Shown here: in pieces, positions 6,703-60,764 of the stretch
Numbering within the stretch: the first letter of the stretch is position 1
Layout: each line of letters starts with the position of its first letter
Assembly: GCF_044348475.1 (NCBI RefSeq)
Contig: NZ_JBIKSU010000004.1
Location: 7,602-71,601 of the forward strand
Direction of reading: 5' to 3'
DNA: 64,000 nucleotides
DNA from: Daejeonella sp.
GTDB lineage: Bacteria > Bacteroidota > Bacteroidia > Sphingobacteriales > Sphingobacteriaceae
Made by a program: the position numbers and the translations under genes
The notes under the pieces: model-generated
The model's input: only the letters and a program-made list of their open reading frames with translations
What the model was told of the DNA's origin: nothing
Databases searched by the model: none

Positions 6703-7662
6703 ATGTCTGCCTCAGAAACCAAATCCGCATCACCAATACTGGTAATTCTTGCATTTGCAATTGTTTATCTTGTTTGGGGCTCAACCTATTTATTTATTCA
6801 GATTGCCGTAAAGGGGTTTCCGCCATTTATTTTGGGTGCCTTTCGTTTTATTTTAGCAGGCTTGATCATGGCAATATGGTGTATTATAAAAGGCGAAAAA
6901 CTAGTTGGTATCAAGGGCATCAAACACGCAGCTTTCAGTGGGATATTACTTCTGTTTTTTGGAACCGGAATTGTTATTTGGGTGGAACAAAGCATGCCAA
7001 GTGCCATGGTTGCCATTACAGTTTCATCTGCACCTTTATGGTTTGTATTACTTGACAAACCTAAATGGTCTGAAAATTTCAAAAGTAAATCGATTATTGC
7101 CGGAATGCTTATTGGACTGGCAGGGGTGATTTTACTCTTTAGTGAACAAATTTCACAGATTTTTTCAGTACCAGAAAGCACTCCTGTAAAAATGAGCAGT
7201 ATGATACTATTGCTATTTGCTGCCATTACCTGGGCAGGGGGGTCACTCTATTCAAAATACAGATCTGCAGAAGGGCCGATCATTGTTTCAACAACCTGGC
7301 AAATTATGGCTGCAGGAATTGCCTTTATTCCAGGTATTTTCATTCGCGATGAATTCAGTTCATTTCAATGGCGAGAAGTGCCGTCCGATTCATGGTTCGC
7401 ACTTGCTTATCTGGTAAGCATGGGTTCTATCGCTGGCTTTAGCGCGTATGTATGGTTACTACAGGTACGAACTGCCATGCAGGTTAGTACACACTCGTAT
7501 GTAAACCCTGTTGTAGCTGTGCTTCTTGGAGTATTTTTTGCAAATGAAAAAATTACTGGTATCCAGATCGCAGGGCTTTTCATTATCCTGGGAAGTGTGT
7601 TCCTGATTAATATGGCTAAGTATCGAAGAGAAAAATTAGCCGAAAGAGTTAGAAATTCCTAG
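6703..7662 (+). CDS. EamA/DMT family transporter
   Basis: 319-aa ORF with about 10 TM helices and the two-EamA-repeat architecture. Its ATG directly follows the regulator's TAA, so the two are probably one operon. Confidence 0.85.
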   Translation: MSASETKSASPILVILAFAIVYLVWGSTYLFIQIAVKGFPPFILGAFRFILAGLIMAIWCIIKGEKLVGIKGIKHAAFSGILLLFFGTGIVIWVEQSMPSAMVAITVSSAPLWFVLLDKPKWSENFKSKSIIAGMLIGLAGVILLFSEQISQIFSVPESTPVKMSSMILLLFAAITWAGGSLYSKYRSAEGPIIVSTTWQIMAAGIAFIPGIFIRDEFSSFQWREVPSDSWFALAYLVSMGSIAGFSAYVWLLQVRTAMQVSTHSYVNPVVAVLLGVFFANEKITGIQIAGLFIILGSVFLINMAKYRREKLAERVRNS

Positions 7663-50955: not shown

Positions 50956-52536
50956 ATGAAAACAATATTTCTATTGGGTTCTATATTTTTTTGCTCATTT
51001 GTTGTAAATGGACAAACAATAGCAGACCTGCTTATTCGAAATGGAAAAATTTATGACGGTACAGGAAATTCCTGGTATTATGGTGATTTGGCAATAAAAA
51101 ATGGCAGAATTATCAAAACCGGACATATAGCTGATATGCAGGCCAAAAAGACCATTGATGCCAAAGGCTTGATCGTGGCACCTGGTTTTATTGATGTTCA
51201 TGGGCATATTGAAGGGGGTATTACTGAAACTCCCACAGCTAATAACTATATTTTTGATGGCGTAACAACAGTTATTACTGGCAATTGTGGAGGGTCGGCT
51301 GAAAATATTGGCTCTTTTTTTCAAGAAATCAATACAATCAGGCCTTCTATTAATGTTGCCACTCTATTCGGGCATAATACCGTTCGAGCACAAGTCATGA
51401 ACAGAGATAACAGAACTCCCACAAATCTGGAACAGAAAAAGATGGAAAGTCTGGTAGAACAAGCAATGAAACAAGGTGCTGTTGGTTTGTCTACAGGATT
51501 AATCTATATCCCAGGTACATTCGCCAAAACGGAAGAGGTTAGCGGACTGGCTAGGGCAGCAGGAAAGTATAAGGGTGTTTACGCATCTCATATCCGGAAT
51601 GAGGAAAATAAAGCAGTTGATGCTATTAATGAGGCAATAAATATTGGTAAAGAAGCAAATATTCCTGTACAGATCTCTCACTTTAAGATAGGTGGTAAAT
51701 CAAATTGGGGCAAATCAAACATTACCCTTGGCTTAGTAAAACAGGCGCGCCTTGACGGTTGGGATGTTACGATCGATCAATATCCATACACCGCAAGCAG
51801 CACGAATCTGGGAATACGATTACCAGACTGGGCGTTTGCAGGCGGAAACGATAGCATGAAGGTACGTTTGAACAACCCGCTTGTAAGAGCTCAGATCAAA
51901 AAAGAAATGTTGCAGCAGTTAGCCAGCTATAAATTTCCTAATTACAGCTATGCAGTTGTTGCCAACTATCCTTCAGACACCACTTACAATGGAAAGAATA
52001 TCTCTGAAATTAATAAACTGATGGGAAGAAGGGCAAAAGTTAAATTTGAAGCCGAGACCATTATGGATATGGTTGAAAAAGGAGGTGCCCAAATGGTCTA
52101 TAATAGCATGAATGAAGCCGATGTGAAAAATATCATGCAATATCCATTCAGTATGTTTGGTGCTGATGCTGGTGTTCCTGTACCAGGGCGCGGAATGCCA
52201 CATCCACGTGGATATGGTTCTAATGCAAGGGTTTTAGGCAAATATGTCAGAGATGAAAACGTACTTTCCATGGAGGATGCTATTCGGAGGATGACCTCAT
52301 TAGCTGCACAAAAATTCGGGTTAAATGATAGAGGCCTGTTACTCGCAAATTACGCTGCTGATATCGTGATATTCAGCGAATCAGAAGTAACCGACATGGC
52401 TACCTTTCAAAAACCACATGCTTACTCTAAAGGGTTTAAATATGTAGTTGTGAATGGTGAGTTAGTGGTTGAAAACGAAAAACACTTAGGTACCAGAAGT
52501 GGGAAAGCGTTGTATGGGTTGGGGTATGTGGAGTGA
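50956..52536 (+). CDS. N-acyl-D-amino-acid deacylase (D-aminoacylase) family amidohydrolase
   Basis: Started at the ATG at 50956 (MKTIFLLGSIFFCSFVVNGQ signal peptide). Metal motif GFIDVHGH is present, with the D-aminoacylase-like layout. The TGA stop lies inside the first heptad of the downstream repeat array. Confidence 0.85.
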   Translation: MKTIFLLGSIFFCSFVVNGQTIADLLIRNGKIYDGTGNSWYYGDLAIKNGRIIKTGHIADMQAKKTIDAKGLIVAPGFIDVHGHIEGGITETPTANNYIFDGVTTVITGNCGGSAENIGSFFQEINTIRPSINVATLFGHNTVRAQVMNRDNRTPTNLEQKKMESLVEQAMKQGAVGLSTGLIYIPGTFAKTEEVSGLARAAGKYKGVYASHIRNEENKAVDAINEAINIGKEANIPVQISHFKIGGKSNWGKSNITLGLVKQARLDGWDVTIDQYPYTASSTNLGIRLPDWAFAGGNDSMKVRLNNPLVRAQIKKEMLQQLASYKFPNYSYAVVANYPSDTTYNGKNISEINKLMGRRAKVKFEAETIMDMVEKGGAQMVYNSMNEADVKNIMQYPFSMFGADAGVPVPGRGMPHPRGYGSNARVLGKYVRDENVLSMEDAIRRMTSLAAQKFGLNDRGLLLANYAADIVIFSESEVTDMATFQKPHAYSKGFKYVVVNGELVVENEKHLGTRSGKALYGLGYVE

Positions 52537-52798
52537 GGTAAGAAGTGTGTTGTCTGTTGTCTGTTGACTGAGGTAAGAAGTGTGTTGTCTGTTGTCTGTT
52601 GTCTGTTGACTGAGGTAAGAAGTGTGTTGTCTGTTGTCTGTTGTCTGTTGTCTGTTGACTGAGGTATGAAGTATGAAGTATGAAGTATGAGGTAGGAGGT
52701 CTGAGGTAGGAAGGAAGGGAAGGGGTGTTGTCTGTTGTCTGGCTATCGTACCCATCCTGATAACTGATAACTGATAACAGATAACAGATAACTGATAA
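52531..52798. repeat. Heptanucleotide-periodic tandem array filling a convergent intergenic gap
   Basis: 30 in-register heptads span 52531-52740. They form the unit [gaNtgag gtaagaa gtgtgtt (gtctgtt)n] with n=2, 3, 4, followed by gtatgaa-type variants and (gttgtct)x2. A 16-nt unique spacer follows, then 6 heptads ctgataa/cagataa (52757-52798). Confidence 0.95.
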
Positions 52799-52804
52799 CT
52801 CACC

Positions 52805-53590
52805 TTAAAACCGAATAACAAAATCTTCTTTTGCCTGTGCTTTTCTGACGAATACCAGTCCGATTTGAAAAAGATCAAAAGTTACACTGACTTCTGGATG
52901 TGCTTTAATTTGTTCCCAGGCATCTTTCATGTCCTGACTCCTGTAAATATTATCAACTATCAGTATTGATTCCTCGCTTAGCTTTGGTAAACACCACCTA
53001 AAATAGTTCAGAATAGCTTCTTTAGGATGTTTGCCATTTATTAATACGAAATCAAGTTCAGTAATATCTTTAATGACTTCTGGAAACAACTCATCAAAAT
53101 TCCCAACAAGGAGTTCTAAATTTTGAATATTGAGCTTATCAAGATTTTCATGCGTAATTTCTGCTGTTTCAGGATACCTCTCTAAACTAATAATCTGAGC
53201 ATTTGGCGCTGCTTTTGCAAGGTATGCTGTGGTAATACCTAAGCAATTACCCAATTCAATAATAGTTGACGGATTTACATCTAAAACAAGGCGATGAATG
53301 AGCTGATCTAGCCTGGCAGGCTTTAAACTATTCCTGGCAAATGTGCTAATCTTCTTTTGTTTATTCTGGTTAAGAAGTGAACCAACTCCAAGATCAGTGA
53401 TAGGTATACTGCGCACATCAAGGAATAATTCAGACCGTAATTTCTCAATGTCAGAATAAACCTTTTTGGCATGAAAATCATAAATAACTTGATCAACCAG
53501 ACGGTAGGCAAAGGGTGAATGTACGCCATGCCGCGTTTTGGCTTTCAATCGATATTTAAGGAAATCAACCGCCACTTGGAGATTTATCAT
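52805..53590 (-). CDS. class I SAM-dependent methyltransferase (O-methyltransferase-like)
   Basis: 261-aa ORF with a motif I-like IIELGNCLGITTAYLA and an acidic residue after the beta-2 strand (ISLE). Confidence 0.72.
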   Translation of the reverse strand: MINLQVAVDFLKYRLKAKTRHGVHSPFAYRLVDQVIYDFHAKKVYSDIEKLRSELFLDVRSIPITDLGVGSLLNQNKQKKISTFARNSLKPARLDQLIHRLVLDVNPSTIIELGNCLGITTAYLAKAAPNAQIISLERYPETAEITHENLDKLNIQNLELLVGNFDELFPEVIKDITELDFVLINGKHPKEAILNYFRWCLPKLSEESILIVDNIYRSQDMKDAWEQIKAHPEVSVTFDLFQIGLVFVRKAQAKEDFVIRF

Positions 53591-53610
53591 GGGGCTAAAG
53601 ATAGTTTTCA

Positions 53611-53645
53611 GATGTGAGATCTGAAATATGAGATTTGAGATAGAA
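53611..53645. repeat. Short heptad array in a divergent promoter region
   Basis: Five heptads: gatgtga gatctga aatatga gatttga gatagaa. They are flanked by an imperfect inverted repeat, ggctaaag (53593-53600) / cttatagcc (53650-53658). Confidence 0.8.
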
Positions 53646-54591: not shown

Positions 54592-54603
54592 GGGAGGGGG
54601 GAA

Positions 54604-54966
54604 GGTTATAGGTAATAGGTTATAGGTTATAAGTAATAGGTTATAGGTAATAGGTAATAGGTTATAAGTTTAAAGCTGAAAGGGGGAAGCTGAAAGGGGA
54701 AAGCTGAAAGGAGAAAGGCAGTTGTCTGTTATCTGTTGTCTGAGGTATGAAGTATGAGGTCTGAAGCAGAATCTATATCCCAATACTCTATACTCACTAC
54801 TCAATACTCAAAATCTGTTGTCTGTTATCAGTTGTCTGTTGTCTGAAGCAGAATCTATATCTCAATACTCAAAATCTGTTGTCTGTTATCAGTTGTCTGT
54901 TGTCTGAAGCAGAATCTATATCTCAATACGCTATACTCACTACTCACTACTCAAAATCAGTTATCA
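54604..54966. repeat. Mosaic heptanucleotide-periodic array with an embedded 61-bp tandem duplication
   Basis: 30 in-register heptads span 54604-54813, in families ggttata/ggtaata, agctgaa/aggggaa, tgtctgt/tatctgt, ggtatga/agtatga and ctcaata/ctcacta. A 61-bp unit follows at 54810-54870 and repeats at 54871-54929 (identical over 59 nt). A partial copy of that unit lies at 54760-54788. Confidence 0.95.
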
Positions 54967-55005
54967 GATTTTGGGAAATAGAATAAATTTCAAATTAGCA
55001 CTGAA

Positions 55006-55096
55006 TTGTCTTGGTTCTTTGCTCTTGGTTCTTTGTTCTTTACTCTTTACTCCTTGTTCTTTTGTCTTGGATCTTGGTTCTTGATACTTGGATCTA
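55006..55096. repeat. Heptad array (NNNTCTT on plus strand = AAGANNN on minus strand) abutting the prfB stop codon
   Basis: 13 in-register heptads: ttgtctt ggttctt tgctctt ggttctt tgttctt tactctt tactcct tgttctt ttgtctt ggatctt ggttctt gatactt ggatcta. They end 1 nt before the prfB TAG (55098-55100). Confidence 0.9.
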
Positions 55097-55097
55097 A

Positions 55098-56175
55098 CTA
55101 AAATTCCATCAAATAAGCCTTCAAAAATTCATCTAGATCGCCATCAAGAACTGCCTGAGCATTAGATGTTTCATAATTTGTGCGCAGATCTTTCACCAGT
55201 TTATATGGATGTAGCACATAATTCCGAATCTGTGAACCCCATTCTATCTTCTTCTTATTTCCCTCAATGGTTGCTGAAGCTTCTTGACGCTTACGCATTT
55301 CTGCCTCATAAAGCTGCGATTTTAATAGTCGGATAGCATTCTCTTTATTCTGAAGCTGAGAACGTGATTCCTGATTTTTAATGATAATCCCAGATGGTTT
55401 ATGATATAAACGAACGGCGGTTTCTACCTTATTCACATTCTGACCTCCAGCACCGCCAGAGCGGAAGGTTTCAAATTCAATATCTGCCGGGTTAACATAA
55501 ATCTCAATGGTATCATCTACCAATGGGTACACATACACTGAAGCAAATGAGGTATGTCGCTTTGCATTCGAATCAAAAGGTGAAATTCTAACCAACCTAT
55601 GAACACCATTCTCGCCTTTTAAATACCCATAGGCAAAATTACCTTCAAATTGTATGGTTACAGTCTTGATTCCAGCTACATCGCCTTCTTGATAATCTTG
55701 TTCACTAACCTTAAATCCATGCTTTTCGCCCCACATAACATACATTCTGAGTAGCATAGCTGCCCAGTCGCAACTTTCGGTACCTCCAGCCCCGGCAGTA
55801 ATTTGCATCACCGCATTCAGCTGATCTTCTTCAGAACTGAGCATATTTTTGAACTCTAGCTCTTCTATCTTTTTAACTGTAATATCAAATTGCTCCTTTA
55901 GTTCAGATTCTGTGGCATCTCCAGATTGGAAAAAATCGAGCATGACAGTAACATCTTCAACGGATGCTTCCGCAAGTTGGAACTCATCGGTCCATTTTTT
56001 CTTAGTGTTTATTGAATGTAATGCTTTTTCGGCCTCCTTAGGGTCATCCCAGAAATCGGGTCTCAGGGCAATATCCTGTTCATTTTTGAGATCATCTAAC
56101 TTCTTGTCGATGTCAAAGATGCCTCCTCAGAGACGTTATTCTGTCTCTTAAATCCTGAATATTTTCTTTGGTCAT
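55098..56175 (-). CDS. prfB: peptide chain release factor 2, expressed via a programmed +1 frameshift
   Basis: Frame 0 runs 56175..56116 ([20 protein letters not shown]) and ends at an in-frame TGA (56115-56113). After a +1 shift, 56114..55098 reads [30 protein letters not shown]... into the track ORF (MLDFFQSGD...). SPF and GGQ ([11 protein letters not shown]) motifs are present. The product is about 358 aa. Confidence 0.95.
56113..56127 (-). promoter_or_regulatory. prfB +1 frameshift site with an internal Shine-Dalgarno-like stimulator
   Basis: The minus strand reads AGGAGG CAT CTT TGA C. This is the canonical CUU UGA C slippery/stop context, with an SD-like AGGAGG 3 nt upstream. Confidence 0.9.
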
Positions 56176-56195
56176 AATGCAAAAATAGAAAAAAA

Positions 56196-56243
56196 TTACT
56201 CATCAATTGAGTAAAAGCTGACAGGATATTGAATTTTGTCAGC
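56196..56243 (-). terminator. Two tandem hairpins with T-runs between the M16 peptidase operon and prfB
   Basis: On the minus strand, GCTGACA-(13 nt)-TGTCAGC is followed by TTTT (56243-56217). TTACTCA-attga-TGAGTAA is followed by TTTTTTT (56214-56196). Confidence 0.5.
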
Positions 56244-56252
56244 CTATAAATC

Positions 56253-59073: not shown

Positions 59074-60735
59074 ATGCTTCCCCGCCATAATTTAACTTCA
59101 ACAGATACATTCAAAGCCCTTTCTGACCATTTCAACAGGATCAAAAAGGAGAAAATAATCGATCTATTCAAGGATAATACACGATTTAAACAATTTTCAA
59201 TCACCTTCGGAGATATTTTACTCGATTACTCTAAGAATAGAATCAATTCAGAGACCCATGAGCTATTATTGAAGCTAGCCAAAGAATGTGAGTTGAAACA
59301 AGCCATTGAAGCTATGTTCAGAGGTGAAAAGATAAATGAAACTGAAGGAAGGGCAGTTTTACATACCGCATTACGTAACCCAAACCATTCGGGTTTTAAT
59401 CTGGAGGGTAAAGATATATTAGCTGATATTCATCGAGTTTTAACTAAAATGGAACTGTTTTCTGACCGGGTGATTGGCGGGCAATGGAAAGGTTATACGG
59501 GCAAAGCAATTACTCATATTGTGAATATTGGCATTGGCGGCTCGGATCTAGGACCCGTTATGGTAACTGAAGCACTAAAAGCCTACAGGAATCATATAAA
59601 ATTACACTTCGTTTCAAATGTGGATGGCTCTCATATCGTAGAAACACTTAAAGAACTTGATCCGGAAACTACCTTATTCATGATTGCCTCCAAGACATTT
59701 ACTACCCAGGAGACTATGGCTAATGCCTATTCTGCTCGCAACTGGTTTCTAAAAGGTAGCGCCGCAGAAGAAGATGTGGCCAAACATTTTGTGGCCATCT
59801 CAACTAATGAGCAAGAAGTTTCAAAATTCGGGATTGATACGGCTAATATGTTTGAATTCTGGGATTGGGTTGGTGGAAGATATTCGCTTTGGAGTGCCAT
59901 CGGACTCAGCATAGCCTGCGGTATCGGATATTCCAATTTTAAGGCTTTATTGGATGGTGCACATGATGCCGATGAGCATTTCAGAAATACAGACTTTGAT
60001 AAAAATATTCCGGTAACGCTGGCACTTCTAGGTGTTTGGTACAGCAATTTTTTTGGTGCTGAAAGTCATGCGATTTTACCATATGATCAGTATATGCATC
60101 GCTTTGCTGCCTATTTCCAGCAGGGAGATATGGAAAGTAATGGAAAATCAACTGACCGCAATGGTATGGCTATCCACTATCAAACTGGTTCAGTGATTTG
60201 GGGTGAGCCAGGCACTAACGGACAACATGCTTTCTTTCAACTCATACATCAAGGCACTAAACTTATTCCTTGTGATTTTATAGCACCCGCTCAGAGCCAT
60301 AATCCAATTGGAAATCATCATCAGTTACTCTTATCTAATTTCTTTGCTCAGACTGAAGCTTTAATGAATGGCAAAAGTAAAGATCAGGTTGTGGCTGAGC
60401 TGAAAGCTGCCGGAAATACTGAAGATGAAATAAAAAACCTGGCGCCATTCAAGGTTTTTGAAGGTAATAGGCCTACCAATTCGATACTGATAAAAAAAAT
60501 CACACCCCATACTTTAGGTTCGCTTATCGCGATTTACGAACATAAAATATTTGTTCAGGGTATAATATGGAACATTTTTAGTTTCGATCAGTGGGGTGTT
60601 GAGCTAGGCAAGCAACTGGCAGGGCGTATTTTGCCAGAGTTGAAAGATGAACAAGCGGTTACTGGGCATGATGCTTCAACTAATGGCTTGATCAATCAGT
60701 ATAAGGTTTGGAGGGAAAGGAAAGGGGAAAGCTGA
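59074..60735 (+). CDS. pgi: glucose-6-phosphate isomerase
   Basis: 553-aa ORF with PGI signatures ([41 protein letters not shown]). The last ~6 codons and the TGA lie inside a heptad repeat. Confidence 0.95.
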
Positions 60736-60764
60736 AAGCTCAAAGCTGAAAGGGTAAAGGGCAA
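60716..60764. repeat. Heptad array (agNNNaa family) spanning the pgi 3' end and the entire convergent gap
   Basis: Seven heptads: aaaggaa aggggaa agctgaa agctcaa agctgaa agggtaa agggcaa. This is the same agctgaa/aggggaa family as 54674-54715. Confidence 0.85.

Follow-up and report, generated by a model that had tools for sequence, protein, structure and literature searches.

The stretch analysed here (the window) comprises 64,000 nucleotides (nt) of a freshwater Daejeonella sp. (Sphingobacteriaceae), positions 7,602 to 71,601 of contig NZ_JBIKSU010000004.1 in assembly GCF_044348475.1, and the element in question is an array of 7-nt units, or heptads, that fills positions 52531-52798, the space between two convergent genes (gap 1). 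Upstream of it, on the + strand, lies an open reading frame (ORF) of 541 amino acids (aa) coding for a D-aminoacylase-like amidohydrolase (Amidohydro_3/1), and the array is bounded by two stop codons, one from each of its neighbours. The genes flanking the arrays support the taxonomic placement in Daejeonella, Sphingobacteriaceae. The parts of gap 1 and its downstream neighbour are the following.

52531-52537, + strand: first heptad, GAGTGAG, which holds the TGA stop (52534-52536) of the amidohydrolase gene
52531-52565, + strand: higher-order copy 1, 35 nt, GAGTGAG GTAAGAA GTGTGTT (GTCTGTT)x2, found by Tandem Repeats Finder (TRF) at period 35
52566-52607, + strand: higher-order copy 2, 42 nt, GACTGAG GTAAGAA GTGTGTT (GTCTGTT)x3, TRF period 42 with 98% matches
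52608-52656, + strand: higher-order copy 3, 49 nt, GACTGAG GTAAGAA GTGTGTT (GTCTGTT)x4, TRF period 49
52657-52712, + strand: purine-rich block, GACTGAG (GTATGAA)x3 GTATGAG GTAGGAG GTCTGAG GTAGGAA, TRF rows of period 7, 14 and 21 at 52660-52713
52713-52726, + strand: G-rich 14-nt filler, GGAAGGG AAGGGGT, non-repeat, register preserved
52727-52740, + strand: (GTTGTCT)x2, left arm of a local hairpin (TRF and local fold)
52741-52756, + strand: 16-nt spacer GGCTATCGTACCCATC, forming the loop of that hairpin and retained by relatives in the orthologous gap
52757-52798, + strand: (CTGATAA)x3 (CAGATAA)x2 CTGATAA, right arm, complementary to GTTGTCT/GTCTGTT via G.U pairs and followed on its 3' side by CTCACCTTAAAACC
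52805-53590, - strand: class I S-adenosylmethionine (SAM)-dependent methyltransferase-like gene, the convergent neighbour, with its stop at 52805-52807 (tta on the + strand)

The array had first been described by a model that read the letters without database searches (the original prediction), and the layout, coordinates and units that it gave match the sequence. Its run of thirty consecutive heptads stands as a statement about register, which is single throughout 52531-52740, but the two units of the G-rich filler are non-repeats. Lag-7 self-identity of 52531-52798 is 0.682, as against 0.283 +/- 0.028 (maximum 0.372) in 2000 shuffles, and stretches of 42 nt with at least 85% self-identity occur in the 64-kb window at lags 7 and 14 only. 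TRF reports rows of period 7, 35, 42 and 49 on 52527-52672, and period 7 also at 52660-52713, 52726-52741 and 52757-52800. The left-hand units share a skeleton G-T-n-T-G-n-n (G1 in 29 of 30 and G5 in 28 of 30), and adjacent heptads are 0-5 substitutions apart, with a mean of 2.07 (4.83 in shuffles). Steps of one or two substitutions, which had been claimed for neighbouring heptads at large, are confined to sub-blocks, while each higher-order boundary takes 3-4; a mutational walk that was re-amplified appears right in outline, although overstated in detail. The three higher-order copies are identical save for the first heptad (GAGTGAG in copy 1, GACTGAG in copies 2 and 3) and the number of GTCTGTT units (2, 3 and 4). 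Through the 16-nt spacer, the right-hand array sits 2 nt out of register with the left-hand heptads; four of its six units are CTGATAA, a rotation of TAACTGA, and the other two its one-mismatch variant TAACAGA. A GGGG(A/T) stretch ahead of the GTTGTCT array is also present in the comparison loci (designated by L numbers) L001, L003, L004 and L005.

In other Daejeonella species, too, the stop of the orthologous amidohydrolase lies inside the first heptad (TAGTTGA..., TAATTGA...). Protein coding within gap 1 was considered and rejected: the only ORF running through it, of 130 aa on the - strand, overlaps the ends of both genes, is without a Pfam match and results from (AACAGAC)n being free of stops.

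To compare alleles, we used same-population assemblies found via contigs encoding an identical 261-aa methyltransferase or 294-aa transglutaminase-like protein. Gap 1 occurs among them as four alleles (268, 277, 352 and 434 nt) beside flanking genes that are ~99% identical, with the amidohydrolase gene differing at 1-15 of 1581 positions. The 268-nt allele of the window is found, identical throughout, in seven independent metagenome assemblies and is therefore not an assembly artefact, a concern that had accompanied the original prediction. The stepwise 2-3-4 growth of the inner tract is real in the window allele, but it is a snapshot of one allele, as the others have 3, 3-3 or 3-4; the order of CTGATAA and CAGATAA units also differs among alleles, and three contigs (L081, L083 and L087) carry, at the block corresponding to 52657-52712, a whole module (purine-rich arm, core, TCTTGGT-type arm) that the window allele is without. 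Copy number and unit identity do vary between close strains, a comparison that had been proposed with the original prediction. A second convergent gap in the window (gap 2, described below) has seven alleles among 11 same-species assemblies, ranging from 95 to 560 nt. Sixty-two of the 120 pairwise inter-allele indels are multiples of 7 (14% expected), and many of the others are module-sized, e.g. 61 or 86 nt. These differences look like the outcome of slippage or unequal recombination in 7-nt and module-sized steps, and nothing was found that points to the dedicated generating mechanism originally put forward. Close relatives (L001-L006, with 91-97% protein identity) draw on the same units in the orthologous gap but arrange them in wholly different ways.

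The + strand RNA of gap 1 folds at -79.6 kcal/mol (z = -3.3, with none of 200 shuffles as low), and the - strand gives z = -0.7. Over the four alleles, z ranges from -4.1 to -5.1 on the + strand and from -1.0 to +0.4 on the - strand, and the local hairpin around the 16-nt spacer from -25 to -32.5 kcal/mol. The pairing partners are the GUCUGUU/GUUGUCU tracts and the CWGAUAA tract, an imperfect inverted pair, and in the minimum-free-energy fold it is the tract of copy 3 (52608-52656) that pairs with the right-hand CWGATAA array. Since pairing is via G.U, the fold forms on + strand RNA only. The - strand transcript (52537-52804) is C/A-rich, with C in strong excess and G scarce (C 87 and G 27 of 268), and unstructured. 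Such a composition is what would be expected of a Rho-utilisation site, so that termination of the two converging genes could be asymmetric, by a hairpin on one strand and by Rho on the other.

The 16-nt spacer was found only in the orthologous gap (the window, L001, L003, L004 and L021), in every case with (GTTRTCT)n on one side and (CTGAnAA)n on the other; confined in this way and not dispersed, it was rejected as a mobile mini-element. In more distant species (L033, L029, L028, L068, L067 and L007), the orthologous gap forms single long hairpins that start 0-5 nt past the stop, and in distant species the hairpin arms are heptad arrays of other sequence (GTTGACR, GTTGAAA, CTGAAAA, ATTGAGA). 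Each left arm fits its own right arm better than that of another species, and the arms therefore co-vary. The stem TGGAGAGTTGA, present as a single copy in L007, is a repeated unit in L013 and L015, which suggests that arrays grow out of hairpin arms. Among Daejeonella gaps of 40-350 nt, convergent gaps bearing heptads have a median z of ~-5.5 on both strands, with 73% below -3, as compared with ~-2 for heptad-free convergent gaps; heptad arrays in divergent or tandem gaps give z of -0.8 to -1.5 (~-0.8 in divergent ones).

The stable + strand fold would suit a structured non-coding RNA gene, short-read assembly of repeats is difficult enough to invite artefacts, and simple sequence repeats (SSRs) are classic contingency loci, yet we regard all three (artefact, RNA gene or phase-variation switch) as highly improbable accounts of gap 1. 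Apart from the seven identical assemblies, similar arrays are present in cultured type strains; a search of Rfam returned no family at gathering thresholds and, at E <= 1, two chance-level matches far below the cut-offs, and primary sequence is not conserved between species; and the array lies between two stop codons rather than in a promoter, a 5' untranslated region or the 5' part of a coding sequence, where a phase-variable repeat would be placed.

The explanation that we consider moderately probable is that gap 1 is a hypervariable heptanucleotide repeat mosaic, generated by slippage or unequal recombination in 7-nt and module steps, seeded by a hairpin and likely to form a 3'-end stem-loop. 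One ancestral unit of GTnTGnn type would have been amplified, point mutations in it would then have been re-amplified, and expansion and contraction by strand slippage or unequal recombination would have continued, 7 nt or a whole higher-order module at a time. Steps of this kind keep the units in one register and let copy number differ by strain, and convergent 3' gaps tolerate array growth because they hold no promoters or leaders. The array would be built around the hairpin arms that occupy the orthologous gap in other Daejeonella species, from which it probably grew and which it keeps in part; the combination of (GTTGTCT/GTCTGTT)n, the 16-nt loop and (CWGATAA)n is most likely a putative terminator or a 3'-end-protecting stem-loop of the amidohydrolase mRNA, and the remainder of the array is probably without sequence-specific function. 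These parts differ in firmness. Membership in the class that holds the cyanobacterial short tandemly repeated repetitive (STRR) sequences, the heptameric SSRs and the TAACTGA repeats is secure; the slippage mechanism is one that we infer from comparison of alleles; and a function of the hairpin, less certain, would follow from a predicted strand-specific fold that is kept among the alleles and from covariation of the arms between species.

Gap 1 is a genuine non-coding array of the STRR type and, in support of the original prediction, a member of a wider family. In 608 kb of Daejeonella DNA (the window and 37 further loci), TRF finds 85 arrays of period 7 and 31 of period 14, with no other period exceeding 9, so that the enrichment of period 7 is present and the distribution of periods is not flat. 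Even at the level of exact two-copy repeats, intergenic 7-mers number 81 against 6.1 expected, without excess of 6-mers (29 against 22.8) or 8-mers (3 against 1.7). Generic length-dependent slippage fails to account for so sharp a peak. Period-7 arrays make up 0.1% of coding bases and up to 18% of convergent-gap bases; with gap 1 excluded, their share of gap bases is 17.7% in convergent, 1.5% in tandem and 2.9% in divergent gaps (Fisher p = 5e-4), and a threshold-free lag profile of the convergent gaps, again without gap 1, gives a lag-7 identity of 0.40 over a baseline of ~0.27. In the window itself, three of the five convergent gaps are built of heptads (lag-7 identity 0.62-0.71), and none of the ~23 tandem gaps is.

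Outside Daejeonella, period 7 is again the top class (47 arrays in 801 kb), with examples in Niastella and in cultured Chitinophaga rupis DSM 21039; among cultured type strains, D. rubra DSM 24536 and D. lutea DSM 22385 have heptad arrays as well. The C. rupis locus (L056) contains nine heptad arrays in 21 kb, several of them inverted pairs, and one such pair, (AAGCATA)n/(GCTTTAT)n, is situated directly 3' of the amidohydrolase ortholog. In L035-L080 (Chitinophagaceae and others), exact two-copy 8-mers are also in excess (16 against 1.6 expected), a feature that Daejeonella lacks.

Of the arrays, 68 have a stop and 17 a start as their nearest gene end, and 45 of the 68 stop-proximal arrays overlap the stop or lie no more than 11 nt away; in tandem gaps, too, stops prevail over starts as the nearest end (14 vs 4). 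Among 36 stop-adjacent arrays, the sense strand of the unit includes a stop codon in 22 and the antisense strand in 7. Because 7 is not a multiple of 3, a stop-bearing heptad closes all three frames within 21 nt, and ORFs must therefore end at the start of such an array, which accounts for the stop in the first heptad of gap 1, correctly noted in the original prediction. A special role for TGA was rejected, as the orientation bias of stop-bearing units is explained passively by ORFs ending where arrays begin. MacGregor (2015) gives the same all-frame-stop argument for the placement of repeats (PMC4679880).

The strictness of the period bears on an alternative in which a dedicated 7-nt generator or selector is at work, either a single-stranded RNA or DNA binder with a 7-nt footprint (of the cold-shock-domain or S1 type, after MacGregor 2015) or a specialised polymerase or template-repeat activity, with the arrays as its platform or product. 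Period 7 holds in more than 40 unit types, with 6 and 8 lacking excess even at two copies; TAACTGA/CTGATAA is common to Beggiatoaceae, Cyanobacteria and Bacteroidetes, and cold-shock proteins bind about one per heptamer (PMC4679880). A scan of metagenome contigs for (GTTGTCT)3 found it, among the matches listed, in contigs of 33-70% GC. However, no motif is common to all units, so that a sequence-specific binder would need great tolerance, annotation of the region around the arrays (46.6-62.2 kb) brought up no candidate gene, the module-sized and non-7 indels among alleles are typical of recombination, and the heptamer excess across many unrelated bacteria (PMC4692102) fits the core replication machinery better than a special factor. 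We therefore judge this alternative unlikely.

Three further heptad arrays of the window lie beyond the methyltransferase gene.

53606-53642, + strand: imperfect short (TGAGATn) heptad array in a divergent gap, 16-52 nt upstream of the methyltransferase ATG
54603-55095, + strand: gap 2, a convergent gap of 506 nt with at least seven heptad unit types and non-heptad cores (TRF, allele comparison and folding)
60712-60759, + strand: GAAAGGG/AAAGCTG heptad array in a third convergent gap, containing the phosphoglucose isomerase TGA (60733-60735)

The (TGAGATn) array keeps its position across Daejeonella species (L005, L011, L012, L014, L016-L018, L022, L034 and L069) with 3-10 copies, is unchanged in 11 same-species assemblies and has no fold; in contrast to the 3' arrays, it may serve in a leader or a promoter. 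The GAAAGGG/AAAGCTG array takes in the stop of phosphoglucose isomerase and the codons just before it, and thus repeat DNA encodes the C-terminus of the protein. On the far side of gap 2, prfB (release factor 2; 55098-56175, - strand) has the classic programmed +1 frameshift site, AGGAGG-cat-CTTTGAC, with CTTTGAC at 56118-56112 and the ATG at 56175-56173, and the apparent 309-nt 'intergenic gap' 55944-56252 is consequently mostly coding.

The gap 2 mosaic includes an exact 61-nt tandem duplication (54800-54929, 2.1 copies, 100% identity). Allele L100 is without one 61-nt copy and L094 without 61 + 86 nt, and unequal recombination of modules appears, from these alleles, to be ongoing. In L097 (1976-2070), gap 2 is shortened to 95 nt within an AGGTTAT array and a DUF7133 gene (1003 aa) replaces prfB downstream; the junction is either a rearrangement breakpoint inside the array or a chimeric assembly. 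A non-heptad core, ..GGAAAATACAGT AAATTTCAAATTAGCACT GAATTGTC.., lies between (GTTRTCA)n and (TCTTGGT)n arrays (54960-55010 in the window). Copies of AAATTTCAAATTAGCACT are found in L002 (11183 and 11284), L004 (8765), L005 (2232-2553 and 4620-4889), L006 (11685, 13787 and 13909) and L023 (4951), at 1-4 per gap in two different gaps and in a single orientation throughout, and are not significantly structured; to judge by these copies, the core with its arms probably constitutes an amplifiable module. In addition, a perfect 16-nt palindrome, CCCGATAGCTATCGGG, absent from the window, is dispersed across several Daejeonella species, frequently inside heptad arrays (L003 11811-11826 and 12028-12043; L033 8345-8360; L068 4387-4402; L069 8426-8441), and its variant CCCAATAGTTATTGGG (L014 11701-11716 and L020 11715-11730) retains the palindrome by paired changes. 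It recalls the very small dispersed repeats that are embedded in Nostoc heptamer arrays.

The dispersed palindrome, the AAATTTCAAATTAGCACT core with its conserved flanks in the window and five other loci, and the additional module of L081, L083 and L087 would be in keeping with a mosaic of small mobile or recombining modules (heptad arm, unique core, heptad arm) that insert in 3' gaps and are amplified there, after the manner of MITEs (miniature inverted-repeat transposable elements), bacterial interspersed mosaic elements (BIMEs) or BOX elements. We nevertheless regard it as quite improbable for gap 1, which has no AAATTTCAAATTAGCACT-type core and whose own spacer is not dispersed; moreover, neither terminal inverted repeats nor target duplications can be made out, the modules fold no better than shuffles, and only two neighbouring gaps were sampled.

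The metagenome scan for (GTTGTCT)3 also gave an independent view of placement. Mosaics with in-register walking, as in gap 1, recur in contigs L148, L166 and L174, and many of the 'coding' placements of these arrays are probably stop-free read-through. Many adjoin an oppositely oriented gene at its start codon (L101, L112, L126, L136, L164 and L166); the mRNA leader there would read (AGACAAC)n, which is A/C-rich and unstructured, and such leaders resemble the start-codon-proximal TAACTGA repeats of Beggiatoaceae. As a general rule, convergent-gap enrichment was rejected: it holds in the syntenic Daejeonella loci, with no such bias among the metagenome (GTTGTCT)3 matches listed, and it may be peculiar to Daejeonella or to the sample taken. 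Paired inverted arms are real, yet a minority architecture.

A number of results weigh against a hairpin-seeded slippage mosaic with a role at the 3' end. With regard to placement, the Daejeonella loci are syntenic, so their gaps are not independent, and genes were called by a crude longest-ORF heuristic; among the metagenome matches listed, 24 arrays occupy tandem, 4 convergent and 5 divergent gaps, and a complementary partner is present no farther than 200 nt away for only 8 of 80 (~2.4 expected). With regard to structure, the local stem of gap 1 has a periodic U.U mismatch and G.U pairs; of the features of a canonical intrinsic terminator, a stable stem-loop after the stop is present, but no U-tract lies 3' of the stem, and no canonical terminator was detected in or near any heptad gap. 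(Canonical terminator-like sites are not enriched in 46-64 kb either, with 8 found against 12.4 expected.) Gap 2 was rejected as one giant hairpin, its fold being no stronger than that of shuffles (z = +0.15 for the + strand, +1.64 for the - strand), and G.U pairing between (GAGGTMT)n and (TCTTGGT)n across the conserved core was rejected on the same ground, the arm-core-arm modules giving z of +0.5 to +1.6. The orthologous gap of D. rubra (L006) likewise folds no better than shuffles, and most of the array mass is consequently not hairpin. With regard to mechanism, the allele differences rest on short-read metagenome assemblies, which are prone to repeat mis-assembly, ordinary slippage would not predict so sharp a restriction to 7, without excess at 6 or 8, and the 'polymerase footprint' idea offered for heptamers in the literature is a hypothesis only (PMC4692102).

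Some of these points favour an alternative in which the same 7-nt slippage satellite is free of function, its fold arising incidentally from an old inverted duplication together with G/U richness, and the whole tolerated as junk where selection is weakest. The array mass without a fold, the unfolded gap of L006 and the occurrence of metagenome arrays in every gap type (among the matches listed) fit this view, as do the extreme variability of the arrays within the species and the heptad-free version of the orthologous gap in several Daejeonella species (L008-L010, L024 and L030). On the other hand, a function-free satellite would not lead one to expect that the + strand fold is kept in four alleles despite large rearrangements, that L001, L003, L004 and L021 retain the 16-nt loop and both types of arm beside it with all else changing, that arms co-vary between species, or that heptad arrays are structured in convergent gaps and unstructured in divergent ones. 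We see it as a possible but less probable account, and retain the hairpin-seeded mosaic as the preferred one.

The original prediction knew of no described equivalent in Bacteroidota, which is wrong. MacGregor (2015) describes TAACTGA direct repeats in Beggiatoaceae, 15 Cyanobacteria and five Bacteroidetes, and lists Gramella, Aequorivita, Elizabethkingia, Flexibacter and Paludibacter as Bacteroidetes with these repeats or with heptamer assemblages, 'other heptamer direct repeats' and 'larger assemblages of heptamer repeats' being intergenic in the first three; that study also notes 7-nt indels between close strains and contigs breaking within repeats, and proposes S1, cold-shock and CsrA-type proteins as heptamer binders (PMC4679880). 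Gap 1 shares with the TAACTGA repeats the unit of its right arm (CTGATAA), the intergenic location, and forward copies that stop all frames and sit at ORF ends. Unlike gap 1, the Beggiatoaceae arrays are short, with 2-6 copies, sit directly upstream of start codons and have related heptamers unrepeated; unlike the repeats of Beggiatoaceae and Flexibacter, the gap 1 array lies between two stops, is part of a larger mosaic and is paired with a quasi-complementary array, a placement that resembles the 'between stop codons' subset of TAACTGA repeats in Microcystis (PMC4679880).

Inverted arrays were also described by Rehm et al. (2015), who reported GGGAATC / GGGGAYT heptamer arrays in Xanthomonas and Nostoc, mostly overlapping a stop codon or within 50 bp of it and varying between close relatives, with ~70 arrays in each Xanthomonas genome forming inverted pairs that could fold into stem-loops; slippage by a polymerase whose footprint is 7 nt has been put forward as a hypothesis for the origin of heptamers (PMC4692102). 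The Daejeonella arrays are similarly over-represented, intergenic, stop-proximal, in part paired as inverted repeats and variable between relatives. The Xanthomonas and Nostoc arrays, however, belong to one G-rich, G-quadruplex-forming unit family and lie mostly between co-oriented genes, whereas the present arrays are diverse in their units and lie in AT-rich DNA, in which G-runs abound in a few blocks only (52713-52726, 54592-54602 and 54672-54718). Heptamers form the over-represented long SSR class in many bacteria according to Mrazek (2007), as cited in PMC4692102, and the syntenic loci and the window show what is characteristic of such SSRs: tandem 7-nt units, an excess of period 7, avoidance of coding sequence and polymorphism in unit steps.

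Three heptamers of STRR type exist in Calothrix (PMC4692102). The Daejeonella arrays resemble the cyanobacterial STRR (Calothrix, Nostoc, Anabaena) in their tandem 7-nt units, from a few to dozens of copies, in being intergenic, and in the presence of many arrays and several unit types; they differ in phylum, in mixing more unit types in one register and, in the Daejeonella sample, in being concentrated at convergent 3' gaps and anchored at stops. The STRR units, reportedly given by Mazel et al. in 1990, are CCCCAGT, TTGGTCA and CAACAGT; none of them is present in gap 1, whose units are GTCTGTT, GTATGAA, GACTGAG, CTGATAA etc. The nearest is CAACAGA (GTCTGTT on the other strand), which matches STRR3 (CAACAGT) at 6 of 7 positions. 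A literature search on the STRR unit strings gave irrelevant primer matches only. The repetitive extragenic palindromic (REP) sequences and BIMEs of E. coli and the pneumococcal BOX elements are likewise strain-variable mosaic repeats in 3' or convergent gaps, with variable module number and foldable inverted arms. REP and BOX units are imperfect palindromes of 35-45 nt with conserved sequence, and REPs are mobilised by the RAYT (REP-associated tyrosine) transposase; in gap 1, by contrast, the unit is 7 nt and unconserved in sequence, and is not known to have an enzyme associated with it.

A Nostoc preprint describes heptamer repeats near promoters with regulatory effects. We found no paper specific to heptamer arrays in Sphingobacteriia or Chitinophagia; a study of terminators in cyanobacteria (PMC12642595) does not mention heptamers, and Huang & Mrazek (2014) contains nothing specific on Bacteroidetes. 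No description with an established mechanism was found, in line with the original prediction.

Bacterial heptamer arrays were first noted in 1990, and since 2007 they have counted as the dominant class of long SSRs. To these, the present locus adds a clearly resolved case from Daejeonella, a lineage new to the list (cultured Chitinophaga and Niastella having similar arrays), as well as several natural alleles beside near-identical flanking genes and a link of heptad arrays to hairpin arms at stops in convergent gaps. It is not a new kind of element, but a convenient system in which to measure the mutational process and to test a terminator role. In practical terms, heptad gaps are breakpoints in short-read assembly and potential strain-typing markers for freshwater Daejeonella. 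The preference for exactly seven bases is the only aspect behind which something new may lie. Though we hold it to be rather unlikely, the 7-nt specificity may be a real molecular ruler, acting on dozens of unit sequences in Bacteroidota, Cyanobacteria, Beggiatoaceae and Xanthomonas, and co-opted in Sphingobacteriia/Chitinophagia to build 3'-hairpin arms at stops and to resize them continually. The ruler would be either a property of the replisome or of repair that makes 7-nt loops slippage-prone or repair-proof, or an abundant single-strand binder with a 7-nt footprint, by which such arrays would be selected. If this were true, lake time-series metagenomes of Daejeonella, with several alleles per gap, would make its rate and spectrum measurable.

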